Positions 8,378 to 35,228 of a stretch of DNA of 64,000 bases are shown one piece after another. The notes below the pieces were generated by a model, which worked only from the letters and a program-made list of their open reading frames with translations, did not search any database and was not told the DNA's origin. The position numbers were made by a program, and so were the translations under genes. Positions within the stretch are counted from its first letter, which is position 1. Each line of letters opens with the position of its first letter. The DNA comes from an uncultured virus (IMG/VR IMGVR_UViG_3300042389_000736) (Duplodnaviria; Heunggongvirae; Uroviricota; Caudoviricetes), in IMG/VR virus record IMGVR_UViG_3300042389_000736, positions 1-64,000 of that record; one strand, written 5' to 3'.

Positions 8378-8390
8378 TGGGAGGACCCTG

Positions 8391-9089: not shown

Positions 9090-9153
9090 CTTGAATTCCT
9101 TACAGTGATCTAGGTAGATGTTCCCGTATGGCGTTAACCATACGGGAGACACA

Positions 9154-10499: not shown

Positions 10500-10501
10500 T
10501 T

Positions 10502-13205: not shown

Positions 13206-13826
13206 TTACACCGTCTCGGTGTGCTCTTGGTGGTAGTGATCGCGGATCACAGAAATCTTGGCAAGGTAGTCGACAATCGTTCTCGGATTGACGTACTTAC
13301 CGTTCCCGTTCCGCCAGATCGCGTTAGCCATCTGGAGCACTTGGCGCTCCTTGGTGATGAAGTCGTCGTCGCGACCGATCCGAGCCATGCGGTCTTCCAC
13401 GCTCAGCTCTTCGTAGTTGACGTCGAGGCCGATCGTCACGATGTTGTAACCAGAGGCAATGTGGTTGTTGCGCTGGTTCTTTTCCAGCAGATCCTGCAGA
13501 CCCTCTTCGGCGAGGATGATGGTGGCAATCTTGCCGTCCACGAAGTCGGGGAGTGAACCGTACAGGTCCTTGAAGATGGATCCGGGATTGGTGCCGAGTA
13601 CCCCGATCAGGTCGTCCTGCAGGTACCCGAAGGTTTGGCGCTGGATGAAGATGTAGGGGTCGCCTTGGCGCTCACCGGGGCGCATGGCGCGGGTGGAGAA
13701 CTGCTGCAGCTTGTAGAACAGCTCCGGATAGTCAGAGATGAGGTTCTTTTCGAGGGTGCTCTTGCCAGAGCCGGAGACGCCGACGATCGCGAGGATGGTG
13801 GGCTTGAGAATCGAGAAGTGTTCCAT
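13206..13826 (-). CDS. guanylate kinase-like nucleoside monophosphate kinase
   Basis: P-loop GVSGSGKST and STRAMRPGERQGDPYIF (Gmk TTR..RPGE..G.DY.F motif). Confidence 0.85.
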   Translation of the reverse strand: MEHFSILKPTILAIVGVSGSGKSTLEKNLISDYPELFYKLQQFSTRAMRPGERQGDPYIFIQRQTFGYLQDDLIGVLGTNPGSIFKDLYGSLPDFVDGKIATIILAEEGLQDLLEKNQRNNHIASGYNIVTIGLDVNYEELSVEDRMARIGRDDDFITKERQVLQMANAIWRNGNGKYVNPRTIVDYLAKISVIRDHYHQEHTETV

Positions 13827-21462: not shown

Positions 21463-22020
21463 CTACTCTGTCATGCTGTCGAAGTGGTCTTCAAGATCCT
21501 CTTGGTCGATGATTTTCTGATCAGCTTCTTCGGAGACTCCGACTACCTGGATCAGGTCGATCCCGTGGTCGAGAAGCATGTCGTGGGACATACCGTTCTT
21601 AAACTCTTCGATGTAGTAGATGCGCTTCACCTTCGCCCTGATGAGCCTTGCGGCGCATCGGGTGCAGGGCGAATGGGTGATGTAGAGGGTGGCTCCCTCC
21701 AGCGACCTTCCGATCTCTGCGGCTCTCTGAAGCACTTCGTCTTCTGCGTGGAGCGTGGAGTCTTTGGTCTTCCCGTTGAGGTCAACCGTGTAGGGGTCTC
21801 TGGAGTCCACGTTGTGGTTGAAGCCATACCCGAGAACGTTACCGTTCCGGTCCACTGCCACGGCTCCGACTTGCTTGTCAGGAGCCGGAGAGCGGGACGC
21901 GATCTGCATCGCAACGTTCAGCCACACGCGCAGTGCGCTCGAAGGCTTTCTGTACCGGACGATCGGAGGGGCTTCCTGCAGATCTTCGTTTTCTTCAATT
22001 ACGTGGTAGTCGTTTTCCAC
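21463..22020 (-). CDS. dCMP deaminase
   Basis: QVGAV, GFN, HAE and YITHSPCTRCA zinc deaminase motifs. Confidence 0.88.
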   Translation of the reverse strand: MENDYHVIEENEDLQEAPPIVRYRKPSSALRVWLNVAMQIASRSPAPDKQVGAVAVDRNGNVLGYGFNHNVDSRDPYTVDLNGKTKDSTLHAEDEVLQRAAEIGRSLEGATLYITHSPCTRCAARLIRAKVKRIYYIEEFKNGMSHDMLLDHGIDLIQVVGVSEEADQKIIDQEDLEDHFDSMTE

Positions 22021-22043: not shown

Positions 22044-23951
22044 TCAGTACAGGCCGTCGATGATGCTTTCTTCATCCTTGCTGAACATGTTGTTCTCCAC
22101 AACGTAGTTCAGACGCTCGAAGGCGAGGGTGATCGCCGCCGATGGATGATTGACGAGCGCGTTGGTGAGTTTGAGGAACTTCAACTTCTCGGGGTTGTCA
22201 AAGTTCTTCGGGCGGTGTTGAATGTCGTCCACATCCCTGAGCAACTCGCGGAGGATCAGCTCGATGGTGAGGCTGCTGGCGCGGATGTTCGAACGTTCGA
22301 GAAGGCCGAGGAACTCAGGAAGGATGAGGTGATAATTGCCGGGGTCGGAAATCTTCACCTTCTTCTTGGGCTCCTCTTCAATCACTTCTTCGATGTTGAG
22401 ACGGGCCTCGCTCTCCAGAAGGTGGATGATGTTCTTCAGGGGGGTGGAGAGCTCGCTGTTCTCGACGTTGATCCGGAAGAGGTTCTCCTGACCGTCGTTC
22501 GAAACTTCGATGATGTTGTCTGCCTTGTACTTGGAAACCATGTCGGGGTTCTCAAGCACCACCAGCTCTTCTCCGTCGGCGAACTCGAACTCGACCTGAC
22601 GGTCTCCGTCGAGCACCACCATGCGCTTGATGACCGTCTCCTCCTCATCGTTGACGATGATCTCGGTTACGTTCACCTTGAAGTGCTTCTTGCCGATCAG
22701 GTTGGAGCCGTCGATCTCGAAGTACTCGTACATCTTCTGAGGGAGCTTCACCTTCTCCGGGTTGATCTGGAGCAGGTGCTTCGAGGACAGCAGCATCTGG
22801 GTCAGCTGCTCGGTGAGGCTGAGCACGCTGCTGATGCCGATATGGAACGGGTTCACCTTCACCAGATCGCCGTAGCAGGTGTGGCATATGCCGTCTTCGG
22901 CGCAGCAGGTGATCGGAGTGCGGAGCCGGATCTTCTTGCCGACCATACTCTGGTCCCGACCGTCGATCTTGACCAGCTTGCCCTTGACAGAGCGGTAGCG
23001 ACCGTTGAGCCGCTTGAGCGCCGACTTGGACTCGATGACCATTTCGAGGTAGTTGTCGGACCCGCAGTCCTTGGTCTCAGACAGCTTCTGATTCAGCACC
23101 AGGAGCAGGAGCTTCCGCGACATGTAACCAGCGCGGCGCACTTGCAGCGAGTTGGTGATCAGCGCCTTGCGGGCACCCATCGCCGAGACGAAGTAGTCCA
23201 TCTCGTTGCGGAACCCGTAGAAGAGGTTCGTGTCCACGCAGTGCGGGAAGATCGCAGATGAGGTCACCTCGGGCTTGTAGCCGACGTTGCAGAACACCTG
23301 CTGGAACTGTCCGATTGACACAGCCGACAGGAGGTTCTTGTAACAGTTGTACTCGTCATCCTTGATGATAGCTTCGAGCAGCTGGCGGTTTGCGTTCTTG
23401 ACCTTCTCGTTGCCTTCGAAGTAGTCGACCTTGGAGCCGGTCTCCTCCCGCACCTTGGTCTTCAGCAGAGCTGCTACTTCCGGATTTCGCTGCATCATCT
23501 GCAGCATGTCGTAGATGTTGATGCTGTTGCCAGCGGACTGGTTGACCTCGAATGCCATGTCTGCCAGCTCTTCGAGGCAGCGGGCGATGATCGCCTTGAG
23601 ACCAGTGAGGTCAGCGTCCTCGTCGGTCGCCATGCGGATGGTGTCCGTGAAGTACGAGGACACCATCTTCGCCGCATTGTCTTCTGCGGAACACAGAAGA
23701 AGATCGCCCTCGTCGAGATCCCGTTCCAGCACGTAGCGGGCCTTGATCGCGACGAGGGCGAGGACCAAGGCACCGAACCGCTGGCTCAGTACCTTGCCCA
23801 TGAACTTGAACTTCGTTTCCCGACGACGAATCGAGAAGTCGGCCTTCAGGAGAGCGATACACTCGTCCGTGAAGTTAATCGTCGCTTCCAGATCTTTCTG
23901 CTCGACGAAGTTCAGATTTAGAACTTTTTCCTTTTCGTTTTTTGCCACCAT
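22044..23951 (-). CDS. RNA polymerase beta' subunit C-terminal half (probably non-virion RNAP)
   Basis: Bridge helix YFVSAMGARKALITNSLQVRRAGYMSRKL; Zn site DCG...RTPITC....GICHTCYG; trigger loop IG..SVLSLTEQLTQMLLSSKH. Confidence 0.9.
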   Translation of the reverse strand: MVAKNEKEKVLNLNFVEQKDLEATINFTDECIALLKADFSIRRRETKFKFMGKVLSQRFGALVLALVAIKARYVLERDLDEGDLLLCSAEDNAAKMVSSYFTDTIRMATDEDADLTGLKAIIARCLEELADMAFEVNQSAGNSINIYDMLQMMQRNPEVAALLKTKVREETGSKVDYFEGNEKVKNANRQLLEAIIKDDEYNCYKNLLSAVSIGQFQQVFCNVGYKPEVTSSAIFPHCVDTNLFYGFRNEMDYFVSAMGARKALITNSLQVRRAGYMSRKLLLLVLNQKLSETKDCGSDNYLEMVIESKSALKRLNGRYRSVKGKLVKIDGRDQSMVGKKIRLRTPITCCAEDGICHTCYGDLVKVNPFHIGISSVLSLTEQLTQMLLSSKHLLQINPEKVKLPQKMYEYFEIDGSNLIGKKHFKVNVTEIIVNDEEETVIKRMVVLDGDRQVEFEFADGEELVVLENPDMVSKYKADNIIEVSNDGQENLFRINVENSELSTPLKNIIHLLESEARLNIEEVIEEEPKKKVKISDPGNYHLILPEFLGLLERSNIRASSLTIELILRELLRDVDDIQHRPKNFDNPEKLKFLKLTNALVNHPSAAITLAFERLNYVVENNMFSKDEESIIDGLY

Positions 23952-24269: not shown

Positions 24270-25316
24270 TTACTTCTTCTTCTTGGCCGGAGTGAAGGTC
24301 TCATTGCCTTCGTCGTCGGTGCCCCACTTGCCGTTGACGAAGTTGCCCTTGGCGTCGAACTGACCTTCGACGAACTCGCCGTCATCGGTAGTCGTGCCCT
24401 TGGTCATGGTCTTGCCGTAGTACAGGTTCAGGCTGACCTTGGTGTGCGGGCTGACGAGGGTGTGGTACGGAGTAGCGACTTGCGCCAGCTCGGTGTTCGG
24501 GGCGTACACGCGAGCTTCCATTTCGCGGCGCTTGAACTTCGCCACGAACTTCACATCGTACTCGGCCAGAGTCTCTTCGAGGAAGGTCTCGAAAGCCTTG
24601 ACGACTTGGATGGTGACGCTCTTGGTCGGAGGAGCGATGCCCAGCTCGACCAGCTTGTCGTGGAAGCGGCTGAACAGTTCGTCCTGCGGCATCCAGGAAC
24701 CCGGCTTCAATTCCTTGCGCTCTTTCTCCTTCTTGGCGCCCCAAGCGGAGTTCTTGCCGGTCTTGGTCTGCTTGCCGGTCGGGACTTCGTCGTCGCCTTC
24801 GTCGTCAGCGGCGGGCTTCGCAGCCTTCTTGGCGGGAGCAGCGGCCTTGACCGGGGCCTTGGCGGCAGCCTTCACGGGAGCCTTGGCAGGGGCCTTCTTC
24901 GGAGCCGGAGCTTCTTCTTCGGCTTCTTCCTCTTCGCCGTCTTCTTCCGAGGATTCTTCTTCCTCTTCTTCTTCCGGCTCAGGGGCCTTCGGAGCGGCCT
25001 TCTTGGCAGGGGCCTTGGCGGCGGGCTTCACGACCTTCTTCGGAGCCGGAGCTTCTTCTTCGGCTTCTTCCTCTTCGCCGTCCTCGTCGCCTTCTTCCTC
25101 TTCTTCTTCCGGCTCAACGGCCTTCGGAGCGGCCTTCTTGGCCAGGACTTTCTTCACCGGCTTGGCCGGAGCTTCTTCTTCCTCGCCTTCGCCTTCACCG
25201 CCCTCGACTTGGGAGTCTTCCTCTTCGTCGTCGGCGGGCTTGCTCACCTTCTTGGAGGCGGTAGCGGGGGAAGCGCCGTTCTTCTTCTTGGCCAGCAGGT
25301 CTTTGATCGATGCCAT
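24270..25316 (-). CDS. HU/IHF-like DNA-binding protein with a long N-terminal alternating acidic/PAKK repeat region
   Basis: C-terminal ~110 aa follow the HU pattern (QDELF...TKSVTIQVVKAFETFLEETL...KFKRREMEAR..NT..KVSL...GK); N-terminal poly-Glu and PAKKA blocks. Confidence 0.65.
   Translation of the reverse strand: MASIKDLLAKKKNGASPATASKKVSKPADDEEEDSQVEGGEGEGEEEEAPAKPVKKVLAKKAAPKAVEPEEEEEEGDEDGEEEEAEEEAPAPKKVVKPAAKAPAKKAAPKAPEPEEEEEEESSEEDGEEEEAEEEAPAPKKAPAKAPVKAAAKAPVKAAAPAKKAAKPAADDEGDDEVPTGKQTKTGKNSAWGAKKEKERKELKPGSWMPQDELFSRFHDKLVELGIAPPTKSVTIQVVKAFETFLEETLAEYDVKFVAKFKRREMEARVYAPNTELAQVATPYHTLVSPHTKVSLNLYYGKTMTKGTTTDDGEFVEGQFDAKGNFVNGKWGTDDEGNETFTPAKKKK
24890..25190. repeat. intragenic tandem repeat, period about 141 nt
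   Basis: GGAGCCGGAGCTTCTTCTTCGGCTTCTTCCTCTTCGCCGTC at 24901 and 25042, partial third copy near 25164. Confidence 0.85.
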
Positions 25317-25581: not shown

Positions 25582-26523
25582 CTATGCCAGCTTGATGAGC
25601 AGGTCAATGATGGCCCGCGTCATAGCGATGGAACGGTGATTCCACTTGAGTCTCTCCGAGATCGACACGTCGCTTAGGGAGCAGAACTGCTCCTCGTCTT
25701 TAGACTTGCCGTTGACGAAGAAGATCGAATTATAGCCGAAATCTCGATGCAGCGCACGGAGACTTTCGCGGTCGTTGAGGGAAAAGCCATTCGGAACAAC
25801 GACCTCTCCAAAGAGGGTTCCGATGCCTGACGCCGCGATCTTGCCGGACGGCTCGGCGATGGTCGCCACAGTCTGGAAGTACGCCGGAACCTCACCGTGC
25901 TTCCCGACCACGCTCATGACGCGAGTCAGCAGCATGACCTTGTTCAGGAAGTCCTTCGCGTCCTTGGTTTTCACCGACTCGGGCTTCCCTTCTTCCGAAA
26001 GGATCTCGTGGTAGATGATACCGGCATCCACGAAGCTCTCGGGGTTGTAACGACCGATGTTTCGGTCGAAGTACCGAGCGGAGTAGACACCCGGCTCGTC
26101 TCCAAGCAGCGGAACACAGATACCGGAGTCCTCTGCCATGACGTAGGACGACAAGTGTGCTGCGGTCTGGGTGCTCTTCAGGACGGAGTTCGCGTAGAGG
26201 GTGCTCCCCGTCTCGTCCACTTCCGGTAGCGGAACCTTCGGCACGTCGAACTCCAGCAGCCCGTCCAGCAGCTCCTTCAGATGACCGCTGTTCTCGATGA
26301 ATCCCTTGAATTCGAGCACCTTCCCGTAGTTGCCGGTGGCGAACCAGATTCGAGGATCGCGCTTCAGGGTGATTGGCAGGTAGTCGAGGATGCGTCCCTT
26401 GATCGGCAGCAGGTATGCCATCACGCTCTCGATCTCACTCCGGAAGGAGCTGTAGTTTTCTTGCTGGCGCAGAACCGTCGTGCGGTGCCCGTCCAGATCG
26501 ATGAGGTCAATCACTTCTTCCAT
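25582..26523 (-). CDS. Ham1/RdgB-family non-canonical NTP pyrophosphatase
   Basis: FATGNYGK, AEDSG, PGVYSARY, FGYNSIF, NHR motifs; AAGGA RBS before ATG 26523. Confidence 0.82.
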   Translation of the reverse strand: MEEVIDLIDLDGHRTTVLRQQENYSSFRSEIESVMAYLLPIKGRILDYLPITLKRDPRIWFATGNYGKVLEFKGFIENSGHLKELLDGLLEFDVPKVPLPEVDETGSTLYANSVLKSTQTAAHLSSYVMAEDSGICVPLLGDEPGVYSARYFDRNIGRYNPESFVDAGIIYHEILSEEGKPESVKTKDAKDFLNKVMLLTRVMSVVGKHGEVPAYFQTVATIAEPSGKIAASGIGTLFGEVVVPNGFSLNDRESLRALHRDFGYNSIFFVNGKSKDEEQFCSLSDVSISERLKWNHRSIAMTRAIIDLLIKLA

Positions 26524-26807
26524 GCTTCTTCCTTTTGCTTCATTTGCCGTAGTGGCTAAATCGTACCATCGATACGTTCCTTTCAGTTTTCCTCTCAGTC
26601 GCAGTTGTATTCGGGAATATCTCTTTAGCACATCCCGAGGGGGACTTTAGGGGGTGATAGAGTACGAGATCATCTTTAAATAAATAATGATACCGTAACC
26701 CAGATCATCCTCTAGGAGCACTGATATGATATATGAGTAATAGTGGATTTGCTTTGTAACTACTCATTAATCATGAAACACTTTCATTTTTCTAGGGGAT
26801 AACCACC

Positions 26808-29800
26808 ATGATGGTTTCAATGGAAAAGATCATCCCGAACAAGATCTACTTCTCGTCTTCTCTCCAGATCAATGTGGAAAAGGAAGGGAAGTACATCCTT
26901 ACTTCGACGGATCCAGAGGATCCACAAAGACTGAAGTCCTTGACGGACTCCATGAAATTCGTGCCTCAAGGGAAGATGTACCTGTACTTCCCAGAGATGC
27001 TGCTGAACCCGGCGACTCTCGCTTCGATCAGCTCCACCAAGGAACGCAACGACTTCTTCAAGGACATCGCAGAGATCAACCTCGGCCATCAGGCCACCAA
27101 GGTCATGAAGCTCTCCGATCTCTCTCAGGAGCAGAAGAGTGACAACCATCCGCTGGTCGTCAACGTCGGCGGGTACTTCTCCAAGCTGGACTCGTACATC
27201 TCGGTCCACAAGAAGACCCCTCAGCAGAAGTACGCTTACCTCAAGCTCGTACTGAAGAAGATCCTGGCAGACACCGCGAGGGACATCCCGGAAGGCAAGA
27301 AGACGCTGGTCGTGGACATCCAAGGTAACAGCCCGAGAATCGACCCGGTGCTGTTCACCATCGTATACGGCCTGAAGAAGGACTTCGAGGGGTGCTCCGG
27401 TATCTTCTCCGGAGTGGACGTGATCTTGGTCGATCCCGACCACAACCTCTTCGTCAAACTGAATCTGACCGACCGCAAGAAAGCCATCCAGTCGGTGAAC
27501 CTGTCTGCGAAGATGGCTGCTCTCAGCAAGTCGTTCGATCCCAAGAAGGTCATCACCGACAAGGACGTCCAAGTCGGCGACACTGTGGTATCAGACGACG
27601 CCGAAGTGATCGGATCCACCGAAGAGACCCCGATCGACAAGACCGGAGAGGTCACCAATCAGGAAGCTGCCAAGGCTTCCGAACAGACCAAGGAAGAAGC
27701 AGACCACACTGACGTGGACGGCGTATCCCGAGTCGAAGACCTCGATCTCAGCGAGATCATGGCGACCGACACCTCTGCCGAGTTCGACCGGCTCGAAAAG
27801 GAGAACGCCGAGTTTGTGGCAAAGTTCAAGCCGCAGCAGGACAAAGCCTTCGGCGACGTCCAGAAGAGGGAAGAAGACTTCGTTCTCCATGTGGAATCGG
27901 CAAAGGACGACGCGGTACTCAACCCGAGCATCAAGACCGCCAAGACGGTGGCCCTGACCAACTCCTACCACAAGAACCTCTTCAGGAAGGATGTTGCCTC
28001 CCTCCTCCAGTCCCTCAATAACGACTCAGAATTCCCTGCCGTCGTGATCTCGCACGAGATGAAGGACTCTTCGGACCCGCTGAACCTGAAGGACGAGCTT
28101 TCCGTCGTCTTCATGGACAAGCAGGGTAAGAAGCACAACTTCACTGTTGACGTTCCCAAACTGTCCTCCGACGGCTTCCTGTACATCAACGGCAATAAAA
28201 AGTTCATCGCCAAGCAGACGACGCTTTTGCCGCTCATCAAGGAAGCTCCCGACCGAGTCCAGATCACCACGTCGTACTCGAAGACCTTCTTGTACCGCAA
28301 GGGCGACAAGACTAACCCGATGATCGACAGGATCTTTAAGACTCTCATCGGTAAGTCGTACACCGGGGTGAAGCCCATGTACGGCAATTCCTTCGCGTCC
28401 AACATCAAGTACGGCGTCAGTATCCCCTACAACTACCTCTCGAAGCGTCTCTTCACGCTCAGCTTCGATCTGGGAGCGAAGGCTTCTCTGGACTTCCACT
28501 TCAGCCAGAAGCGGATCCGTTCGGTGATGGAGGATGCCGGGATGTCGATCCCGGAAGGGAAGCTGCCGGTTGCACTGCGGATGATGAACGGCAAGATTGA
28601 TGCGGTCTACTTCGAGGATGCGTCCACCAGAAAGGTGGAGCAGGTCAGCGGCAAGACGGTCATGAAGACCTATCAGAACCTGCAGGACCTGCTCGTCGAG
28701 ACGATCAGGAACTACAAGAACACCGACGTCCTGAAGGCTTTCGAGGCCACCAATGCAGGCAAGGCGTACAGCTACACCGACATCAAGCTCGCCGGGACCA
28801 GCGTCCCTCTGGGCATCCTCGTCAGCTTCTACCAAGGTCTGCTTCCAGCTCTCGACGGGTACGGCATCAAGTACACCGTCTCCGCTGAGAAGCGCCGTGC
28901 TGCAGAGAACGAGACTCTCATCCAGTTCAAGGACATGAATGTGTACCTGAATCTGGAAGGGGATACTGCTAAGGAGCTCTTTGCCAACGGTCTGTACTTC
29001 CTGAATACCAAGGAGTTCTCCTACCGGGACGCTGAGCGTCGTGGGTCTGTGTTCATCGAGTACTTCGGAGAGGCAATCGGATCCCGCAACATCGCCAAGG
29101 CATACATCAACTTCGAGACCTCGATGATCGACCCGATCACGAAGGAGATCCTCATCGATCTGAAACTGCCAACGGAGTTCGTCCCTCTGCTTTACAAGGC
29201 GAACGACATGCTGGCGGGGTACTCCCACAAGCGCAAGAACGACATGACGAACTTCCGGGTCAGAGACTCTGAGGTGCTGTCCGTGGCGATCTACGACGTA
29301 CTCATGAAGTCCTTCAACGAGTACAAGCGCACCGTGAAGACCGGCGTGGTGACTCCGATCTCTGCGCCGAAGGACGCCGTGGTCAAGAAGGTGCAGGCTC
29401 TCCCGAACGTGGAGGACTATTCGGTTCTGTCTCCGTTCCTCGAAATGGAGCTGAAGTCCAAGACGACATTCAAAGGTCCGTCCGGCCTCAACAGCTCCGA
29501 CGCCTACACCGCCGAGATTCGTTCTTACGATCCGTCGATGATCGGCCTGTTCGGCATCTTCTCCCCGGTCTCCGGGGAGATCGGCGTCAACCGCTCTCTG
29601 GTGCTGAACCCGAAGATCCGAAACAACCGTGGGTACCTCGACCATCCGGACGTGGACTCGATGAACATGGACAACCTGTTCGCCTCCGGCGAGCTGCTGA
29701 ACCTGTTCTCCGCGAACCACTCCGACCCGATGCGTACCGGCATGGCTACCACTCAGGGCAAGCACATCGTCTCGACGAAGGTGCAGCACAACTACCTGAT

Positions 29801-30923
29801 CGGTACCGGTCTCGACAAGACCATCTCCCAGCTCATCGGGCAAGATTTTGCCTGGAAGGCGGCGGAGGACGGCGAGATCGTCAAGATCGACCAGCGGAAC
29901 AAGCTCGTCTTCGTGAAGTACAAGACCGGGCAGACTACCGCGATCGACGTCAGCGACAAGCCCGCCAAGAACTCTTCTTCCGGCTTCTGGATCAAGAACA
30001 AGCTCGAACTCATCGATGGCCTGAAGGTCGGCTCCAAGTTCAAAAAGGGTCAGACCCTAGCTACTAACCGCAGCTTCTTCCGGCAGGACATGGACGGATC
30101 CCACGGATTTGCCCCCGGAAGGCTCACGAAAGTGGCGATGATGTGCCTCCCAACCACTTACGAAGACTCCGCCCCTGTCATCGAAAAAGTGGCAAAGGAG
30201 ATGGCTTCCGACATCATCACCGAGAAGCAGGTGGCGCTGAAAGAGAACTCCAAGATCATCAAGATCGCCAGCGAAGGCCAGAAGCTCAACGTCAACGACC
30301 CCCTCATCATCTTCGAGGAGATCGGCGACAGCGAGAAGGATGCCCTGAGCGCGATCGAGAAGGCGGCTAAAGCTGCCGAGGGAGACGAGGACTTGGAGCA
30401 CCTCGGAAGAAACATCATCAAGTCGAAGTACTCCGGTACGATCACCAACGTCAAAGTCTACTACAACTGCGACTTGGAGTCCGACGCGATCCACCCGACT
30501 CTGAAGGAGTACGTCAAGGGGTACATCTCCAAGGTGAAGTCCCGCTCCGACGCTCTGAAGGGTAACAAGGAGGACGACCTGATCGAGATGCCGTCCATCG
30601 AGCGCATCGACTCTGACAAGATCCTCGGCAACGAGATGTCTGGCGTCCTGATCGTGTTCTACATCGCACACGAGGAGAAGATGGACGTTGGCAACAAGCT
30701 GGCATTCTTCTCAGCCTGTAAAGGGATCGTCTCGGAAGTCATTCCTGACGACTTGGCTCCTCTGACGGAGTACCGAGAGGAAGAGCCTATCGAGGCGGTC
30801 GTCTCTCCGATGTCTTTGATCTCTCGTAACACTCCTGACCTTCCGCTCATGGGGTTCTCCAACAAGGTGATCCTTGAGCTGAAGAAGCAGTGTATCGAAG
30901 AGCTCTTCGGCGACAAGAAGTAA
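26808..30923 (+). CDS. RNA polymerase beta subunit, large N-terminal fragment (probably virion RNAP)
   Basis: DGFLYINGNKKFIAKQ, EIRSYDPSMIG...SPVSGEIG, HSDPMRTGMATTQ, YEDS, VGNKL......KG and SPMSLISR match RpoB conserved regions. Confidence 0.9.
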   Translation: MMVSMEKIIPNKIYFSSSLQINVEKEGKYILTSTDPEDPQRLKSLTDSMKFVPQGKMYLYFPEMLLNPATLASISSTKERNDFFKDIAEINLGHQATKVMKLSDLSQEQKSDNHPLVVNVGGYFSKLDSYISVHKKTPQQKYAYLKLVLKKILADTARDIPEGKKTLVVDIQGNSPRIDPVLFTIVYGLKKDFEGCSGIFSGVDVILVDPDHNLFVKLNLTDRKKAIQSVNLSAKMAALSKSFDPKKVITDKDVQVGDTVVSDDAEVIGSTEETPIDKTGEVTNQEAAKASEQTKEEADHTDVDGVSRVEDLDLSEIMATDTSAEFDRLEKENAEFVAKFKPQQDKAFGDVQKREEDFVLHVESAKDDAVLNPSIKTAKTVALTNSYHKNLFRKDVASLLQSLNNDSEFPAVVISHEMKDSSDPLNLKDELSVVFMDKQGKKHNFTVDVPKLSSDGFLYINGNKKFIAKQTTLLPLIKEAPDRVQITTSYSKTFLYRKGDKTNPMIDRIFKTLIGKSYTGVKPMYGNSFASNIKYGVSIPYNYLSKRLFTLSFDLGAKASLDFHFSQKRIRSVMEDAGMSIPEGKLPVALRMMNGKIDAVYFEDASTRKVEQVSGKTVMKTYQNLQDLLVETIRNYKNTDVLKAFEATNAGKAYSYTDIKLAGTSVPLGILVSFYQGLLPALDGYGIKYTVSAEKRRAAENETLIQFKDMNVYLNLEGDTAKELFANGLYFLNTKEFSYRDAERRGSVFIEYFGEAIGSRNIAKAYINFETSMIDPITKEILIDLKLPTEFVPLLYKANDMLAGYSHKRKNDMTNFRVRDSEVLSVAIYDVLMKSFNEYKRTVKTGVVTPISAPKDAVVKKVQALPNVEDYSVLSPFLEMELKSKTTFKGPSGLNSSDAYTAEIRSYDPSMIGLFGIFSPVSGEIGVNRSLVLNPKIRNNRGYLDHPDVDSMNMDNLFASGELLNLFSANHSDPMRTGMATTQGKHIVSTKVQHNYLIGTGLDKTISQLIGQDFAWKAAEDGEIVKIDQRNKLVFVKYKTGQTTAIDVSDKPAKNSSSGFWIKNKLELIDGLKVGSKFKKGQTLATNRSFFRQDMDGSHGFAPGRLTKVAMMCLPTTYEDSAPVIEKVAKEMASDIITEKQVALKENSKIIKIASEGQKLNVNDPLIIFEEIGDSEKDALSAIEKAAKAAEGDEDLEHLGRNIIKSKYSGTITNVKVYYNCDLESDAIHPTLKEYVKGYISKVKSRSDALKGNKEDDLIEMPSIERIDSDKILGNEMSGVLIVFYIAHEEKMDVGNKLAFFSACKGIVSEVIPDDLAPLTEYREEEPIEAVVSPMSLISRNTPDLPLMGFSNKVILELKKQCIEELFGDKK

Positions 30924-30978: not shown

Positions 30979-31022
30979 AGTACTCCTGACTGCCACAACT
31001 CAGTGATAGAAAGGAGTCCACG

Positions 31023-31229
31023 ATGAACAGAAACAACATGCTCAAGGCGATGATGCTGACCGCGCTAGTGGTCAGAAGAAACCAAGCAGAGGACGATCTC
31101 TGCCAAGCAGTCGCCGGTACCAGAATCCAAATCGGAGGAAACAAAAGACAAGTTTCCGACGGCAACACATTCAAGTTCAATCTTCCTTTCGAGAAGGGAA
31201 GAAGGACGCCGAAATGCAAGAAAAATTAA
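31023..31229 (+). CDS. small basic protein with FKFNLxFEKG motif
   Basis: 68 aa, strong AAAGGAG RBS, AACT-N6-TAG at 30997-31009, followed by a terminator. Confidence 0.65.
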   Translation: MNRNNMLKAMMLTALVVRRNQAEDDLCQAVAGTRIQIGGNKRQVSDGNTFKFNLPFEKGRRTPKCKKN

Positions 31230-31233
31230 TGAT

Positions 31234-31379
31234 AACCCCTACTGCCACATAGCAGTAGGGGTCTTTCATCGTTTCGAGGTTATCACACTTCCGGACGCTA
31301 ATCTTGTCCTTACCAGTTCGGGGTCCACCTAGCATATCGGTTGCTAGTGCTACTACCTCCACCTGAATTGTGCCTCAGT
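31234..31379 (-). ncRNA. candidate late structured small RNA (~145 nt)
   Basis: AACA-TATCTA-TAC at 31378-31390(-); stems GAGGU/ACCUC, CUAGCA/UGCUAG, GGAC/GUCC; ends at the ACCCCTACTGC/GCAGTAGGGGT hairpin. Confidence 0.4.
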
Positions 31380-31388
31380 ATAGATATG

Positions 31389-31937
31389 TTAGTATTTTCG
31401 GCTGTCGTAAGCCCACTGTAGCAGGGCCTGACGCTGTACGGGACGGCAAGTGGCATCCCCTTTCTTGCAGTTCTTGGTGAGCTGCGCCTTGTGCCTCACA
31501 AAAGACTTCCAGCGGGCGCACTGTTTTGCATCGACCTTCTCGTCGCGGCGTCCCATGTACGCCCGACAATACCACTGGAACCATCCGCGAGGGTCGTCGC
31601 CCACGATCCACCCTTGCTTCCTCCAGTGCGACAGCGGCTTTCTGGATTTCACCTTGAAGTAGTTCAGCTCAGGATCAGCATCTCCGCCATCCTTCACCAC
31701 CTTGGCACCACTGAACCAAGAAGAGGGGAACTCTCCGTGGCAATCGTTGAGGTACTTACCTTCGAAGACACCGAGAGCCAGCATCTCTTTTGGAGTCAGC
31801 TCAGGGTCGAAGCCATATTTCTCCTTCAAGTCAGAGAGGTCGCCTTCCTTGACAGTCAGCTCATAAGAGTAACCCTTCTGCATCTTGTCGCTAACCTTGA
31901 CGGTCTTTCGTTTACCTTCAAGAAGAATGAATTTCAT
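31389..31937 (-). CDS. conserved uncharacterised Trp/Arg-rich protein
   Basis: F.PELTPKEML.LGVF.G.Y, DPRGWFQWYCR.YMGRR and RQALLQWAY motifs of a widespread family of unknown function. Confidence 0.75.
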   Translation of the reverse strand: MKFILLEGKRKTVKVSDKMQKGYSYELTVKEGDLSDLKEKYGFDPELTPKEMLALGVFEGKYLNDCHGEFPSSWFSGAKVVKDGGDADPELNYFKVKSRKPLSHWRKQGWIVGDDPRGWFQWYCRAYMGRRDEKVDAKQCARWKSFVRHKAQLTKNCKKGDATCRPVQRQALLQWAYDSRKY

Positions 31938-32000
31938 GTTTTCCCCAAGAAAAAAGTACACACTAAGGAAAAGTTAGAGGGGCGCAGAGGCCCCTCCTCC

Positions 32001-32666
32001 TTACTTCCGATGACGGAAGGAAACCCGCTTGTCGAAGCCGTGCTGCACCAGCCGGTCTGTATCCGAGATCTTCACAGGCGGGTCCATGTCCGGAGACGGA
32101 TAGATCACGTTGCCCATGAAGTAAGAAATCTCTTGGTACAGAGAGTTCTGATCGATGATCTTAGAGACCCCGAGCTCCGACAAGACAGGCATCTTGTTAG
32201 AGATTCGGAATTGAGTCTTCCGGTTCCCGTAATTGACTTGGATGCTACTCACCCGAAAGATGGGCTGCTTCAAGATACGGCTGAGTTCAACCAGCATTGG
32301 ATGCGTCCCTCCGTCGAAGAAGCGCATGTCGAGCTCTCTCAGAAAGTACTTGGATCTTACGAATCTGATCGACTCGTCAGTAGTGAGTACTCTCACTTCG
32401 TCTGGAAGACCGGAGCCGAACTCGGCCTGCTTGATCTTCATGAGATGAGGCTTCCCGCAGATCGACAGCAGCTCGGTCCGAGTCCTCGAATGGAAGTCGC
32501 TGTGGGTCGAGAGGGGGAAGTTTCCGTTCATCTCAATTTGGATGTCGCGATAGTCCGGTTCCTCCAGCTTGATGAGCGCCGGTCGTTCGTAGACCACCTT
32601 CGGGTCGATCCCGTAGACGTTCGAAATGTGGTCGTAGTAGTCTCTGAATTTGGAGATGATTCTCAT
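32001..32666 (-). CDS. conserved phage hypothetical protein
   Basis: MRIISKFRDYYD start and HGFDKRVSFRH end, a common phage hypothetical pattern. Confidence 0.75.
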   Translation of the reverse strand: MRIISKFRDYYDHISNVYGIDPKVVYERPALIKLEEPDYRDIQIEMNGNFPLSTHSDFHSRTRTELLSICGKPHLMKIKQAEFGSGLPDEVRVLTTDESIRFVRSKYFLRELDMRFFDGGTHPMLVELSRILKQPIFRVSSIQVNYGNRKTQFRISNKMPVLSELGVSKIIDQNSLYQEISYFMGNVIYPSPDMDPPVKISDTDRLVQHGFDKRVSFRHRK

Positions 32667-32905
32667 TGCTTCTTCCTCACAATCTTGTAGTCGTTCGGAG
32701 CGTACTTGTTGTACAGCTCATCGGCTTCCTCTTGTCCGACCAGCGCAGTGTACTTCTTCATCAAACCGCTGATCTTGTCTGCGTGAGCTTGACCTCGACG
32801 CCATGTGCCGCCGTCATCGCTGTAGTTGTAGTACCAGTCATGCCGAGACAGGCTCTCTTCGAGTTCTTTCCTGACCAGCAGGACATCATCTTTCTCGTTG
32901 CTCAT
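32663..32905 (-). CDS. small hypothetical protein
   Basis: HDWYYNYSDDG..WRRG motif; AAGGA RBS before ATG 32905. Confidence 0.7.
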   Translation of the reverse strand: MSNEKDDVLLVRKELEESLSRHDWYYNYSDDGGTWRRGQAHADKISGLMKKYTALVGQEEADELYNKYAPNDYKIVRKKQ

Positions 32906-33311
32906 TTCTCTTCCTTTCAACATAGGACTTTAGGACTCCGTCCGTCGGTTCAAAGTCCATCTTTCCCTCTACGAAAATCCGGTACGACTCTAGGGCATAC
33001 CAGCCGATTCCATGCATCTTGCTCAGTTCGTCTATGCTTGACGGCGGATTGGCTACCCACTCCGCAGCTAGGCGGATTATCATTTTCGATCGCCGGTTCA
33101 TCAATCCTAGCGACCTGATCGTCTCCACCATCTTCGGCAGGTCTTCTTCCTTCACACATTTGGGAGTAGGCCAATGTCGGAAGAACTCATCTACTACGCT
33201 CTTTACCTGCTCACCAGTGGTCCTGTTCAACAGGATGCTACTGATGACTACCCGCCAAGCATCGCCGTGATAACTCTCTTGAACTAACTTGTATTCGGTA
33301 TTGCGTCGCAT
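32886..33311 (-). CDS. MBD4-like HhH-GPD mismatch DNA glycosylase
   Basis: DAWRVVISSILLNRTTG, LGLMNRR, HGIGWYALESYRIF and EPTD..L..Y parallel MBD4 DPWKLLIATIFLNRTSG, LGLYDLR, HGIGKYGNDSYRIF and PEDHKL..Y; AAGGAGG RBS. Confidence 0.85.
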   Translation of the reverse strand: MRRNTEYKLVQESYHGDAWRVVISSILLNRTTGEQVKSVVDEFFRHWPTPKCVKEEDLPKMVETIRSLGLMNRRSKMIIRLAAEWVANPPSSIDELSKMHGIGWYALESYRIFVEGKMDFEPTDGVLKSYVERKRNEQRER

Positions 33312-33424
33312 GGTTGTCCTCCTTACCATATGACACCGCATCTCTCGGCGTTATCCTTCCGCCACGCTAATGATATATCAAGAAAAAAAGATTCGAGCGA
33401 ACTCGAATCTTTTCTCCTGCATCC

Positions 33425-33562
33425 TTACCACTGGAACCACCACTGGCAGAAAGAGTATGTAAATGCCGAGAAGGTGACAATGGAAACACCGATCGTCATG
33501 CGGGTGTTGAAACGTTCGGTTTCAGCCTCGCGACGGGGGCTGTAAGAGTAGTGGACGTTCAT
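33425..33562 (-). CDS. 45-aa single-TM peptide (below the ORF track cutoff)
   Basis: MNVHYSYSPRREAETERFNTRMTIGVSIVTFSAFTYSFCQWWFQW; GGAG RBS; terminator at 33385-33412 downstream. Confidence 0.5.
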   Translation of the reverse strand: MNVHYSYSPRREAETERFNTRMTIGVSIVTFSAFTYSFCQWWFQW

Positions 33563-33665
33563 TTCGGTTCTCCAATTAGAAGGTTGATATCACAAGAATT
33601 ATATCTGCCGGACTGGGTTGCAGATACGGGAACACAGAAATAGCTAACTTACAAGGAGAGCTGTA

Positions 33666-34025
33666 ATGGAAAAAATCATCATTCTTCTCATGCAATCTCG
33701 TACCCTTGTCCACACGTACCACCTGAAGGCGAAGAATCTTGCTCCTCATCTGGCACTCGACGAGCTGTACAACGCGCTGACCGACCACATCGACGATCTC
33801 ACCGAAGTGTATCAGGGCTTCGCGGAGCGTCTGCTCGATCTGAATTCCTATCCGGGTTTCACCGTAGACGACGACCCTCTCGGCCAAGTGAGAGAGATCG
33901 CCAGTGCCATCGAATCGATGAGAAACCAAATCACCCCCAACTGTTCGACGATCCAGAACATGATCGACGAAGCACTTCAGACTCTGTACAAGACCAAGTA
34001 CAAGCTGATGTTCCTGCCGATCTAA
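33666..34025 (+). CDS. ferritin/Dps-like four-helix protein
   Basis: H..H......HLALDELY......DDLTEVYQG ferroxidase-like motif; late promoter at 33631. Confidence 0.75.
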   Translation: MEKIIILLMQSRTLVHTYHLKAKNLAPHLALDELYNALTDHIDDLTEVYQGFAERLLDLNSYPGFTVDDDPLGQVREIASAIESMRNQITPNCSTIQNMIDEALQTLYKTKYKLMFLPI

Positions 34026-34063
34026 GAAAAAAAAAGAACCCTACCGCGATGGTAGGGTTCTTT
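34025..34063. terminator. bidirectional intrinsic terminator
   Basis: A9-GAACCCTACC-GCGAT-GGTAGGGTTCTTT between convergent genes. Confidence 0.85.
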
Positions 34064-34078
34064 CACGCTCTATAGGAG

Positions 34079-34417
34079 CTACGACGCCGCAAGCGCCTGT
34101 CGGTCGTTCTTGAGAACTTCCCGGAGCGCATTGGCGATGTCGGTCGGGCTGACTTGTTGGGCGGGGCGCGGTTCTTGAGTCTGCTCCCAAGGCATTCCAC
34201 GAGTCAGATCCTCGTAAACCTTGTTGATGCCAGTCTCATTGACGAAAGCATACGCTTCGTCGACCGAATTAAATTGTCGCGGTTCCACCGTCCCATCTTC
34301 CTTCTTCATCTTTACCACCGTCCAGGTTGCGAAAACCACGAAGTGATTCTTCATGAATTCGATTACCCAGTGACCGTTTTGATGGTCGAAGGTGATGCGG
34401 AAAGCGCGATTCTTCAT
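34079..34417 (-). CDS. hypothetical protein (early)
   Basis: 112 aa, AAGGAG RBS, ATATATNAT at 34465-34473. Confidence 0.7.
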   Translation of the reverse strand: MKNRAFRITFDHQNGHWVIEFMKNHFVVFATWTVVKMKKEDGTVEPRQFNSVDEAYAFVNETGINKVYEDLTRGMPWEQTQEPRPAQQVSPTDIANALREVLKNDRQALAAS

Positions 34418-34538
34418 TTGAAACTCCTTGCAAAGATACGGTAATCCGGATGGCTACCACGAAAATTATATATCACTGTTGGGAGCTTACTTCCGGTACG
34501 GCAACAACACCTTAGACCTCATAATAAAAGGAAGAACC

Positions 34539-35090
34539 ATGCATAAAGAGCGGACGTTCTCCGAGACTTCACTTGAGCTAGCCGACGAGCTCATGAAAGA
34601 GCTCGGAGTCAAAGACAAGGACGTGCGGCTCATCGATCAGGCGATTGATGAGTGGCAGAACGAGAAGAACTACACGAAGATATCCCTGACATACTACGGA
34701 GAGCCGAAGGCTCAGGCCCGTCCGAGGTCTTCCAGTCAGCACGGCGGGTTCTTCTATGATCCGAGTAAGAGCCTCAAGCAATGGGTGCTCTCTCAGATCG
34801 TGGCGCAGCTCCCGCCCAATTTCAAGCCCATCGATCGATCCATCGAGGTCACGCTGCGCTTCTACCGGACTATGCCAAAGGGCGGATCCAAGAAGGACAA
34901 GATCCTGATGGAGCTCGGAGTCATCCAGCCTTGCGGTCGTCCCGACATCGACAACTTCATCAAACTCGTTCAAGACGCGCTGAACAAGACGCTGTATACG
35001 GACGACTCCAACATAGTCACGCTGTACGCCGAGAAGTTCTATTCCTGCAAGCCCAGAGTGGAACTTGACATCAAATTCCGTAAAGCCTAA
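34539..35090 (+). CDS. rusA: RusA-family Holliday junction resolvase
   Basis: GEPKAQARPR, RPDIDNFIKLVQDALN..YTDDSNIV, KFYS..PRVE. Confidence 0.88.
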   Translation: MHKERTFSETSLELADELMKELGVKDKDVRLIDQAIDEWQNEKNYTKISLTYYGEPKAQARPRSSSQHGGFFYDPSKSLKQWVLSQIVAQLPPNFKPIDRSIEVTLRFYRTMPKGGSKKDKILMELGVIQPCGRPDIDNFIKLVQDALNKTLYTDDSNIVTLYAEKFYSCKPRVELDIKFRKA

Positions 35091-35103
35091 GAAACAACTT
35101 GTT

Positions 35104-35185
35104 AGTGTGGGACAGTTGTTCTGCACTTGCATCATGCTTTGTCCTTTCTTTTCCCCTAACCCTTTGCCGGGTTAGGGGTCTTTTT
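35104..35185 (+). ncRNA. candidate late small RNA (~82 nt) with an anti-SD seed
   Basis: Promoter AACA-ACTTGT-TAG at 35093-35105; 10-bp hairpin from +1; pyrimidine linker UUUGUCCUUUCUUUU; terminator CCCCTAACCC/GGGTTAGGGG-TCTTTTT. Confidence 0.55.
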
Positions 35186-35228
35186 ACTTCGAAGGACATC
35201 TGTATAGACCAAATAATCGGAGCTAGAA

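Follow-up and report, generated by a model that had tools for sequence, protein, structure and literature searches.

Among proteins of solved structure, the nearest relatives of the enzyme analysed here are the mammalian MBD4 (MED1) glycosylase domains (PDB 4DK9, 4E9E, and 4EVV). For these, a base pocket formed by L447-V448-Q449, L466, G471, and Y540 has been reported (Q449A being inactive), along with an arginine, R468, that fills the gap in the helix, carbonyls of R468 and L506 that read the orphan guanine, and a catalytic aspartate, D560 (PMC3479182, PMC3458566). K562 corresponds to mouse Lys536, which is described as stacking on the flipped base (PMC3458566). Proteins of the same family occur in phages, namely Xp12 QNN97216, AXL1 gp65 ('ENDO3c'), and the 'endonuclease III' of Donnerlittchen. 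XP-12 is reported to carry 5-methylcytosine for all cytosine (PMC7653180, PMC9206674), and no function is given for gp65 in the AXL1 paper (PMC9206674). A further point of reference is the jumbo phages AR9, phiR1-37, and their relatives, for which DNA containing deoxyuridine (dU-DNA) has been reported (PMC5312081, PMC9209446, PMC12697855). In phiR1-37, g100 was proven to be a dTTP pyrophosphatase and g103 a dCTP deaminase, both of which serve to make dU-DNA (PMC12697855). A uracil genome loses the usual recognition of deaminated cytosine. How such phages handle this loss is not addressed in the dU-DNA phage literature cited here, and the words 'repair' and 'mismatch' do not occur in PMC12697855.

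The DNA studied here is a stretch of 64,000 nucleotides (the window) from a 78-kb contig of 55% GC that represents a jumbo-phage fragment of about 30% completeness. According to CheckV, two contigs of this phage are 30% and 52% complete, and together they cover about 143 kb, or about 55% of the expected genome. The phage comes from lake water, and its fragments were assembled from ordinary metagenome libraries.

Within the window, a minus-strand open reading frame spans 32886..33341, and initiation at the ATG at 33311 yields a 141-aa protein (32886..33311, minus strand) that is predicted to be a standalone, probably monofunctional, MBD4-type HhH-GPD DNA glycosylase. Pfam recognised HhH-GPD (PF00730, E 1.1e-8) and no second domain. 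In a PDB sequence search, glycosylase domains of MBD4 took all of the best 15 places (E 7e-16 to 2e-14); beyond these, Mig.MthI (1kea) followed at E 2e-5 and MutY/Nth at 7e-4 or worse. Likewise, when the AlphaFold model (pLDDT 95.1) was compared with the PDB by Foldseek, MBD4 domains made up the best 16 matches (TM 0.79–0.82, rmsd 1.7–2.0 Å, with 4.3 Å for 4ea5), and the first family other than MBD4 appeared at E 2e-4. The predicted fold is that of mammalian MBD4 (TM about 0.8, rmsd about 1.9 Å over 129 columns, about 30% identity), an HhH-GPD fold that includes a Gly-rich hairpin and a catalytic Asp. Mig, the thermostable thymine-DNA glycosylase 1KEA and by its structure title a G:T/G:U mismatch glycosylase, belongs to the HhH-GPD superfamily as well, as do MutY and Nth, but all of these were weaker matches, with target-normalised TM of 0.3–0.5. 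Mig and MutY/Nth carry a C-terminal 4Fe-4S cluster loop. Since the phage protein has a single cysteine (C52) and its C-terminus lies 17 residues past the catalytic Asp D124, it has no such loop, as MBD4 lacks the cluster.

The active-site residues pointed in the same direction. By residue count on the alignment, L9-V10-Q11, L28, R30, G33, L68, Y105, and D124 correspond to L447-V448-Q449, L466, R468, G471, L506, Y540, and D560 of human MBD4, and the MBD4 pocket, the arginine plug, the guanine-reading positions (including the Leu506 loop), and the catalytic Asp are identical at the aligned positions. D124, G101, G103, and W19 are invariant across 30 homologues. The motifs LNRT.G, LGL..R, HGIG.Y..SYRIF, and P.D are all present, and at what we take to be the position of the Nth-type lyase lysine the protein has a tyrosine, as has MBD4. 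Two differences from MBD4 were evident. The phage protein consists of the domain alone, without the methyl-CpG-binding domain and linker, its promoter and ribosome-binding site lying directly upstream of the 141-aa frame; for lack of a methyl-CpG-binding domain we filed it as an MBD4-like domain only and not as an MBD4 ortholog. In addition, H561-K562 of MBD4 at the pocket rim is replaced by G125-V126, and the base preference may therefore differ from that of MBD4. Taken together, sequence and modelled fold support an enzyme of the MBD4 type rather than of the Nth/MutY type. An earlier note on this DNA had described a resemblance to the MBD4 domain without the FeS cysteine cluster, and the motifs, both rankings, and the single cysteine bear this out; it had also named clustering with Nth/MutY as the alternative to be checked, and MBD4 proved closest both by sequence and by predicted fold, ahead of Nth, MutY, Mig, and AlkA.

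The region ahead of the glycosylase ATG contains, in this order, a hairpin terminator, an early promoter motif, and a strong ribosome-binding site, all on the minus strand. The ribosome-binding site, AAGGAGGA, was read from the sequence at 33317..33324, 5 nt ahead of the ATG. The promoter motif, ATATATCATTAGCGTG, is located at 33363..33378, 52 nt upstream of the ATG, and resembles the early consensus reported for AR9, AAATATATATTAT-N6-G (PMC5312081); by analogy with AR9, the transcript would be expected to start at the final G of the motif (33363). The pattern ATATAT.AT-N6-G occurs nine times in the 78-kb contig, each time just upstream of a gene on the same strand. All nine matches fall in the non-coding 10% of the contig (binomial P about 1e-9), and three control variants had no match in the 78 kb. 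Thus, the early-type promoter proposed in the earlier note was confirmed as an AR9-like motif. The terminator-like hairpin, followed by a T-run (33383..33416), separates an upstream small open reading frame from the glycosylase promoter. The fold of 33376–33424 has an energy of −21.3 kcal/mol (z −4.6), and none of 200 shuffles was equally stable; the hairpin is absent from the output of a consensus terminator scan. Downstream of the glycosylase, three tightly packed and co-oriented frames of 86 aa (32663–32923), 221 aa (phrog_4243, 32001–32666), and 190 aa (31389–31961) follow on the minus strand. None of the three had a Pfam, PDB, or informative Atlas match, and all three (31389..32923) probably share the early transcription unit of the glycosylase. 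Among the sequencing runs that contain this phage no RNA run is listed; three wastewater "RNA-Seq" libraries hold small shares of it and are probably DNA.

Both the changed pocket rim and the early promoter bear on the question whether the protein has some other task, such as removing a different base (5-hydroxymethyluracil or oxidised pyrimidines), countering a host defence based on deaminases, or binding DNA without catalysis. MBD4 is reported to remove 5-hydroxymethyluracil too (PMC3479182, PMC3458566), and early expression would suit counter-defence equally well. However, no defence-related partner gene was recognised adjoining the glycosylase, and a version directed against deaminases would share the G:U chemistry and differ in the source of the lesion only. 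A non-catalytic role is unlikely because the protein retains its catalytic Asp together with the complete pocket for uracil or thymine. We consider another task of this kind distinctly unlikely.

To place the phage, its conserved proteins were compared with those of named jumbo phages. The terminase shares 45% identity with that of phiR1-37, 39–41% with those of AR9/PBS1/Goe21, and 34% with S6-like phages, versus 27–31% with phiKZ-like phages. For RNA polymerase beta', phiR1-37 was the nearest phage. A guanylate-kinase-like nucleotide kinase (13206..13826, minus strand) has hardly any phage homologues outside the dU-DNA jumbo clade: they occur in 23 records only, 21 of AR9-, S6-, LPJP1-, or phiR1-37-type phages and two of Brevibacillus phages. 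These comparisons support membership in the dU-DNA jumbo clade (AR9/PBS1, S6, phiR1-37), above all near phiR1-37. All characterised members of this clade have dU-DNA as far as the reports cited extend (PMC5312081, PMC9209446, PMC12697855), which weakens any reading based on normal thymine DNA.

The kinship with phiR1-37 extends to gene order. A 1371-aa RNA polymerase beta-like protein (26808..30923, plus strand) occupies the position of phiR1-37 g099. It is followed, on the minus strand, by a 349-aa Ham1-family protein (25582..26631; g100 homologue, 31% identity, E 2e-20), by a homologue of the structural protein g101 (24270..25316, converted from L001:17996-19042; 28% identity, E 1e-10), by an RNA polymerase beta'-like subunit (22044..23951; best phage match g102, 33% identity), and by a zinc deaminase of the dCMP/cytidine deaminase family (21463..22020; g103 homologue, 34% identity, E 3e-20). 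The order RNA polymerase beta, Ham1-type protein, g101, RNA polymerase beta', deaminase is common to both phages. Judged by sequence and position, the deaminase and the Ham1-like protein are homologues of phiR1-37 Dcd and Dtt. The kinase at 13206–13826 is a candidate dUMP kinase. Accordingly, the dCMP deaminase and altered Ham1 pyrophosphatase listed in the earlier note both correspond to proven phiR1-37 enzymes in conserved order, its kinship with AR9-type dU-DNA phages is reflected in the best matches of terminase, RNA polymerase beta', and kinase, and the search it proposed for dTTPase and dUMP kinase genes returned a g100-type dTTPase homologue and the candidate kinase.

The lack of thymidylate synthase- and dUTPase-type genes has been stated to be a prerequisite for U-DNA (PMC7824862). 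Neither ThyA, ThyX, dUTPase/DCD, nor UDG was found in the two contigs (about 143 kb, about 55% of the expected genome), in agreement with the absence of thyA and dut that the earlier note had named as a check; ThyA and dUTPase are likewise missing from all five complete clade genomes. A thymidylate synthase or dUTPase gene could sit in the missing part of the genome. In addition to the early motif, the contig shares its late promoter consensus with AR9, in line with the AR9-type promoters listed in the earlier note. Of 24 matches to AACA-N6-TA in the 78-kb contig, 16 are intergenic (P about 4e-11), and nine control variants gave 0–2 each. For AR9, template-strand UUGU was reported to be read at this motif, with inactivity when T is present at −11/−10; the dependence on uracil has been shown for AR9 only (PMC9209446). 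Because of the clade, the phiR1-37 gene order, the AR9 late consensus, and the lack of thymidylate synthase, ThyX, and dUTPase in about 143 kb, dU-DNA, with U replacing T, is likely in this phage, although dU and dT look alike in a base sequence. Assembly from ordinary metagenome libraries counts weakly against dU-DNA, the library chemistries not being stated; one tagmentation kit is reported to have failed on dU-DNA (PMC8323127).

In AR9, Val206 of gp226 excludes thymine. No homologue of this promoter-specificity subunit (phiR1-37 g245) was found in the two contigs by protein search, a five-sequence profile, hmmsearch --max, or a motif regex, and the gene may sit in the missing part of the genome. 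A scan of viral contigs with the gp226 profile recovered AT-rich relatives only (L051, 23% GC; L052, 31.5% GC). A 472-aa frame at 35229–36647 was considered as a gp226 homologue and rejected (BLASTP E 3.9).

For the distribution of the glycosylase family a full HMMER search was needed, since a word-indexed protein search returned three matches only. The HMMER search of the whole library gave 2234 matches at E ≤ 1e-3. A FastTree phylogeny was calculated from 155 domain sequences and 149 columns, two domain matches of fewer than 100 residues being excluded; its support was weak. Standalone proteins shorter than 260 aa make up 106 of these 155 sequences. In the tree, short and long forms each fall into clusters (8 changes versus 41 in shuffles), and the phage glycosylase groups with other short standalone forms, its deeper placement being unreliable. 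The earlier description of MBD4 as best known from eukaryotes does not carry over to the domain, which, given the number of matches and the preponderance of standalone forms, is not essentially eukaryotic. PHROGs holds no family for the glycosylase, and a near-DNA search with 8 kb against named phages gave no match.

Outside this phage, homologues were present in 42 viral contigs. These derive from unrelated large phages whose GC contents range from 31 to 62%, and in none of the 42 was the RNA polymerase of this phage found. Such a spread is in line with an ordinary G:T/G:U base-excision gene of the kind often located in the replication and nucleotide-metabolism modules of large phages, in which case the phage would have normal T-DNA, or its DNA chemistry would be irrelevant, and the gene would have no tie to uracil or GC. 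Several contexts fit this explanation. In one contig (L036) the gene is flanked by those for ThyX and an Fpg/Nei glycosylase, and two genes of the dUTPase family lie close by; in a second (L040) an Fpg/Nei gene is located about 2 kb upstream; in a third (L011) its neighbours encode DNA polymerase B and a ribonucleotide reductase. Of the 42 records, 13 contain a gene of the ThyA family, and the neighbours of the glycosylase in the window encode RusA, SbcD-like, SbcC/SMC-like, and DnaB proteins. In contrast, this phage has kept homologues of both phiR1-37 dU-DNA enzymes in unchanged order as well as the AR9 late promoter consensus, its 143 kb lack ThyA, ThyX, and dUTPase, and its characterised clade relatives have dU-DNA. 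We consider an ordinary repair gene without any tie to uracil rather unlikely.

Among named phages, the closest homologues were found in XP-12, AXL1, and Donnerlittchen and relatives, with about 32% identity across 93% of the query. Directly downstream of the gene, XP-12 and Donnerlittchen carry a cassette encoding a HAD/NTP-pyrophosphatase, a thymidylate synthase homologue, a dCMP deaminase, and DHFR; for AXL1, the gene table in PMC9206674 is the source. These proteins, like the one studied here, are small and standalone, and the pyrimidine chemistry of their phages makes deamination products look normal, as dU-DNA would here. This similarity would suit a genome in which cytosine is modified to 5-methylcytosine or a derivative, as in XP-12, with the enzyme mending T:G mispairs that arise from deamination of 5-methylcytosine. 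However, a thymidylate synthase-family enzyme, needed for 5-methyl- or 5-hydroxymethyl-dCMP, was not found in the 143 kb, and the clade and the conserved Dcd and Dtt homologues point to dU. We consider modified cytosine in this phage highly improbable. XP-12-type phages are siphoviruses of 58–64 kb with the gene directly beside the cassette, whereas here a jumbo phage carries it 11 kb from the deaminase gene. The link between this enzyme family and the 5-methylcytosine phage XP-12 has gone unremarked.

Based on sequence, G:U-specific repair is the best reading of the role of the glycosylase. In a dU genome deaminated cytosine is a normal base, and only its mispairing with G therefore marks the damage. 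Such a genome would be torn apart by a general uracil-DNA glycosylase, while a G-dependent enzyme would take U out of G:U and leave U:A untouched; glycosylases of this latter kind are the one enzyme class that would mend these lesions without harm to the genome. As predicted by homology with MBD4, the viral protein would flip the pyrimidine from the helix into a pocket that takes uracil or thymine but not cytosine, the arginine would plug the gap in the helix, backbone carbonyls would verify that the orphaned partner is guanine, and the aspartate would catalyse cleavage of the glycosidic bond. Its early promoter would be read by the injected virion RNA polymerase, and early expression would thus allow it to clear G:U lesions accumulated in the virion, as well as dUTP wrongly inserted opposite G, ahead of replication or while it proceeds. 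AP endonuclease, polymerase, and ligase of host or phage would next process the abasic site; against this reading, the AP endonuclease families PF03372 and PF01261 were not detected in the sampled DNA. Whether a small monofunctional MBD4-type glycosylase does carry out G:U repair in a GC-rich dU-DNA jumbo phage is, in our estimate, evenly balanced.

Each G:U resolved in this way would become G:C, and repair would therefore be GC-biased. The earlier note had proposed that such an enzyme explains the high GC content. The related dU-DNA phages phiR1-37, AR9/PBS1, and S6 have 24–32% GC in the stretches compared, in contrast to 55% here, and an HhH-GPD gene is absent from all five complete dU-DNA clade genomes. 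It is also absent from the proven dU-DNA roseophage DSS3_VP1. Thus, dU-DNA phages do not need the glycosylase, and since DSS3_VP1, which lacks one, has a GC content of 47.5% in its first 50 kb, the explanation of the high GC content is not established. In a broader and tentative form, MBD4-like phage glycosylases may possibly represent dedicated deamination proofreading wherever deamination yields a base that is legitimate in the genome (U from C, or T from 5-methylcytosine), GC-biased repair letting a member of the otherwise AT-rich dU clade persist at 55% GC, presumably in a GC-rich host; we rate this as somewhat doubtful. The locus also suggests that the dU-DNA jumbo phages include a GC-rich freshwater branch. 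As the candidate is small and easily expressed, it makes the question of dU-genome repair testable, and the family is a possible source of compact G:U/G:T-specific glycosylase reagents.

A scan of metagenome contigs gave 80 glycosylase loci, none with more than 48% identity (a partial match) and none recognisably of this phage lineage. At many of these loci the match span is too long for the residues covered, and introns may be present. The six nearest homologues of the glycosylase belong to singleton or pair clusters and are located on contigs of 1.9–80 kb.

The minus-strand open reading frame at 32886..33341 contains an ATG at 33311 that gives a protein of 141 aa, and a ribosome-binding site, AAGGAGGA (33317-33324, minus strand), precedes this start with a 5-nt spacer, confirming the glycosylase gene called earlier at 32886..33311. 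Pfam assigned the protein to HhH-GPD (PF00730, E = 1.1e-8), and PHROGs held no family for it. Human and mouse MBD4 glycosylase domains filled the first 15 places (E = 7e-16 to 2e-14) when the protein was compared with the whole set of PDB sequences; the Mig-type thymine glycosylase 1KEA came next (2e-5), and MutY, Mag2 and endonuclease III after it (at least 7e-4). An AlphaFold2 model based on a 30-sequence alignment had a mean pLDDT of 95.1 and a pTM of 0.88. When this predicted model was compared to the PDB by Foldseek, the 16 best matches were MBD4 domains (TM 0.79–0.82, about 30% identity; rmsd 1.7–2.0 Å in 15 of the 16), with 1KEA and MutY next. Both rankings bear out the proposal of the earlier note that the enzyme is of the MBD4 type rather than of the Nth/MutY type. 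The lack of an FeS cysteine cluster also held: the protein has a single cysteine and ends 17 residues beyond the Asp at the catalytic position, indicating that no Fe-S loop of the Nth/MutY/Mig type is possible. As no methyl-CpG-binding domain is present in the 141 residues, we classed the protein as a glycosylase domain resembling MBD4 rather than as an orthologue of MBD4; the MBD4-like assignment is firm.

According to passages of PMC3479182 and PMC3458566, the base pocket of MBD4 comprises residues 447–449, 560–562, Leu466, Gly471 and Tyr540, of which the Val448 amide, Gln449 and Tyr540 contact the flipped uracil or thymine at O4, N3 and O2, cytosine being excluded. The same passages describe the Q449A mutant as dead, Arg468 as plugging the gap in the helix, Asp560 as catalytic, the Arg468 and Leu506 carbonyls as hydrogen-bonded to N1/N2 of the orphan guanine, and human K562 as the counterpart of mouse Lys536, a residue stacked against the flipped base (PMC3479182, PMC3458566). 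By residue count along the PDB sequence alignment, L9-V10-Q11, L28, R30, G33, L68, Y105 and D124 of the phage protein occupy those positions, and the sole differences at the named positions are G125-V126 in place of H561-K562. All 30 sequences of the homologue alignment share W19, L28, G69, G101, G103, D124 and L127, and almost all share Q11, N29, T31 and Y105. The position of the lyase lysine of Nth-type enzymes is presumably taken by Tyr, as in MBD4, which predicts a monofunctional enzyme.

The window forms the first 64 kb of a viral contig of 77,986 bp with 54.9% GC and without a terminal repeat (CheckV completeness 30%). An identical glycosylase gene lies on an overlapping IMG/VR contig, 136,853 bp long and 52% complete, and the two contigs combine to about 143 kb. 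The terminase matched those of the Bacillus phages AR9, PBS1 and Goe21 at 39–41% and that of Yersinia phage phiR1-37 at 45% over 62% of the query, with further matches to Staphylococcus S6-like (34%) and then phiKZ-type phages (27–31%); the nearest RNA polymerase beta' was that of phiR1-37 (33%). Contigs at least 99% identical to positions 31000-36000, all of them short, occurred in river (2018), wastewater (2025) and lake (2020, 2024) metagenomes, indicating that the lineage is widespread in fresh water at low depth. A variant of this region with about 95% identity was present in one lake run, and 52 of its 64 listed changes were transitions.

According to a 2025 paper (PMC12697855), two phiR1-37 enzymes differ from their annotation: the protein labelled dCMP deaminase is a dCTP deaminase, which supplies dUTP, and its Ham1-type neighbour, labelled "non-canonical purine NTP pyrophosphatase", acts as a dTTP pyrophosphatase, which removes dTTP. 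The corresponding genes lie in the order g099 (RNA polymerase beta, opposite strand), g100 (Ham1/Dtt), g101, g102 (beta') and g103 (deaminase). The window has five like genes in like order: RNA polymerase beta (26808-30923, plus strand, in the position of g099) and, on the minus strand, a Ham1-like gene (25582-26631; 31% identity to g100, E = 2e-20), a g101-like gene (24270-25316; 28%, E = 1e-10), the g102 counterpart beta' (22044-23951) and a deaminase gene (21463-22020; 34% to g103, E = 3e-20). The dCMP deaminase and altered Ham1 protein of the earlier note are thus homologues of g103 and g100, the latter a candidate for the dTTPase gene that it had suggested seeking. A guanylate-kinase-like gene (13206-13826, minus strand), with early and late promoter motifs upstream, has phage homologues in 23 records, 21 from the jumbo clade with deoxyuridine instead of thymidine (dU-DNA; AR9/PBS1, S6, phiR1-37) and two from Brevibacillus phages. 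A dUMP kinase activity has long been known from PBS2-infected cells, and this protein is a candidate for such an enzyme. Neither contig (about 143 kb; 30% and 52% complete) contained ThyA, ThyX, dUTPase, a DCD-type dCTP deaminase or a UDG-family gene, and five complete clade genomes had no ThyA and no dUTPase; part of a comparative review names the absence of such genes as a prerequisite of uracil genomes (PMC7824862). The AR9 late motif is read as template-strand UUGU, and thymine at positions −11 and −10 abolishes its activity (PMC9209446). A promoter-specificity subunit of the type whose valine excludes thymine was not found in the 143 kb of phage DNA, which counts against the wider reading. 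The case for the uracil genome proposed earlier gains considerably from the gene order shared with phiR1-37 and is in line with the lack of ThyA, ThyX and dUTPase in these contigs. Taken together, we consider it rather likely that the phage has dU-DNA.

On the minus strand, a 45-aa open reading frame (33425-33562), a strong hairpin followed by a T-run (33383-33416; −21.3 kcal/mol, z −4.6), the early promoter motif ATATATCATTAGCGTG (33363-33378) and the ribosome-binding site follow one another toward the glycosylase. The motif resembles the early consensus of AR9, given in part of PMC5312081 as AAATATATATTAT-N6-G. The pattern ATATAT.AT-N6-G occurs nine times in the 78-kb contig. By the original gene list, eight copies lay in intergenic sequence ahead of a gene on the same strand, and the ninth lay inside a long, TTG-started form of a RusA reading frame; with RusA started at its first ATG, all nine are intergenic (10.1% non-coding; binomial P ~1e-9). 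Three control variants had no match in the contig. The AR9 late consensus AACA-N6-TA occurs 24 times, with 14 copies intergenic and 12 at most 150 nt upstream of a same-strand gene by the original list, and with 16 intergenic and 15 upstream by the revised one (P ~4e-11); the latter count becomes 14 with the g101-like gene at its exact coordinates, the motif then lying 152 nt upstream. Each of nine control variants had 0–2 intergenic matches. The AR9-type promoters reported earlier hold, including the early one of the glycosylase, a gene with no late motif upstream. Three reading frames (86, 221 and 190 aa; 31389-32923, minus strand) are packed directly behind the glycosylase and probably share its early transcript; neither Pfam nor the PDB gave a match to their proteins. 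For the 190-aa one, the ESM Atlas contains many similar bacterial proteins, and the Atlas model is of high confidence (pTM 0.90).

In a uracil genome, cytosine deamination would produce a base that is normal there, so that pairing with G alone would mark the damage; a glycosylase acting on any uracil would destroy the genome. An MBD4-type enzyme could check the orphan base through hydrogen bonds possible for guanine and not for adenine, and would thus excise U opposite G and spare U:A pairs. Early transcription by an injected polymerase would allow lesions accumulated in the virion to be cleaned before the first replication fixes them, and under abundant dUTP the enzyme would also correct dUTP inserted opposite G. 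As G:U would always be resolved to G:C, such repair would be GC-biased. We infer this whole scheme from homology and established base-excision chemistry; the proposed repair in a probable uracil genome is testable by simple assays.

The earlier note had proposed that, if the phage has U-DNA or 5-modified C, such an enzyme could explain the high GC. The proven dU-DNA roseophage DSS3_VP1, with 47.5% GC in its first 50 kb, has no HhH-GPD gene, nor has any of the five complete dU-DNA clade genomes, indicating that the enzyme is necessary neither for dU-DNA nor for middling GC. DSS3_VP1 is a clear counter-example to necessity; GC may simply follow the host, and a role of the glycosylase in keeping it high is hypothetical. 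A full HMMER search with a cutoff of E ≤ 1e-3 returned 2234 representatives, of which 743 had E ≤ 1e-10; many standalone proteins of 120–170 aa and long proteins with the domain at the C-terminus are included. The phage protein grouped with the short forms in a tree of weak support. A scan of viral contigs yielded 42 further loci of the family. The RNA polymerase of the phage matched one of the 43 carrier records, which is the same phage, and none of the 42 others. Most viral carriers (IMG/VR contigs L002-L032 and L041-L043) are fragments of 31–42% GC with CheckV-scaled genomes of about 280 kb, and two nearly complete carriers, G011 (85%) and G023 (79%), have no ThyA-family gene. In carrier L036, the MBD4-like gene is flanked by ThyX and an Fpg/Nei glycosylase, with two dUTPase-family genes nearby (8418-11198); in L040, an Fpg/Nei-type bifunctional glycosylase gene lies about 2 kb upstream (7833-8753); and in L011 the gene adjoins polymerase B and ribonucleotide reductase. 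These contexts indicate that in some phages the family belongs to an ordinary repair and nucleotide module, and the Fpg/Nei neighbours in L036 and L040, both from unrelated large phages, suggest a small phage base-excision module. The glycosylase is a new member of an established family, and its occurrence in a probable uracil genome is a novel variation on a type of repair already known.

The closest homologues in named phages were those of XP-12 and its relatives (about 32% identity over 93% of the query). XP-12 DNA contains 5-methylcytosine instead of cytosine, as described in parts of PMC7653180 and PMC9206674. In Xanthomonas phage XP-12 (L054:5917-8995) and Janthinobacterium phage Donnerlittchen (L055:5917-8960), the MBD4-like gene, labelled hypothetical or "endonuclease III", heads a block and is directly followed by HAD/NTP pyrophosphatase, thymidylate-synthase homologue, dCMP deaminase and DHFR, in this order. 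Deamination of 5-methylcytosine leads to T:G, the classical MBD4 substrate, so that the XP-12-type enzyme too would repair a normal-looking lesion. AXL1 has the same neighbours, and its gp65 ("ENDO3c") is given no function in the relevant part of PMC9206674. Among the listed titles and abstracts of literature outside subscription-only papers, we found neither a description of a phage MBD4-like glycosylase nor a link of it to 5-methylcytosine genomes; a jumbo-phage review (PMC7824862) mentions neither MBD4 nor HhH, and a T:G repair role for 5-methylcytosine phage genomes has seemingly not been proposed before.

Several other genes of the window were also recorded. A 422-aa protein (62455-63723, minus strand) carries an Acb1 (anti-CBASS phosphodiesterase) domain at its N-terminus as well as a long acidic tail, and adjoins a standalone response-regulator receiver-domain protein (61984-62448, minus strand). 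Downstream of an early promoter motif (63746-61), a gene from 63794 through 64000 and on to 64963 of the contig (plus strand) encodes a 389-aa protein with CxxxCxxC, a typical radical-SAM motif; the protein could conceivably act in the modification of nucleotides or DNA. Late promoter motifs precede the genes for a protein of 2785 aa whose lytic transglycosylase (SLT) domain lies around residue 2400 (50437-58794, plus strand), probably a giant virion-associated protein, for a DUF5856 protein with the PHROG label starvation-inducible regulator (33666-34025, plus strand) and for an HU-like DNA-binding protein (14671-15081, minus strand).
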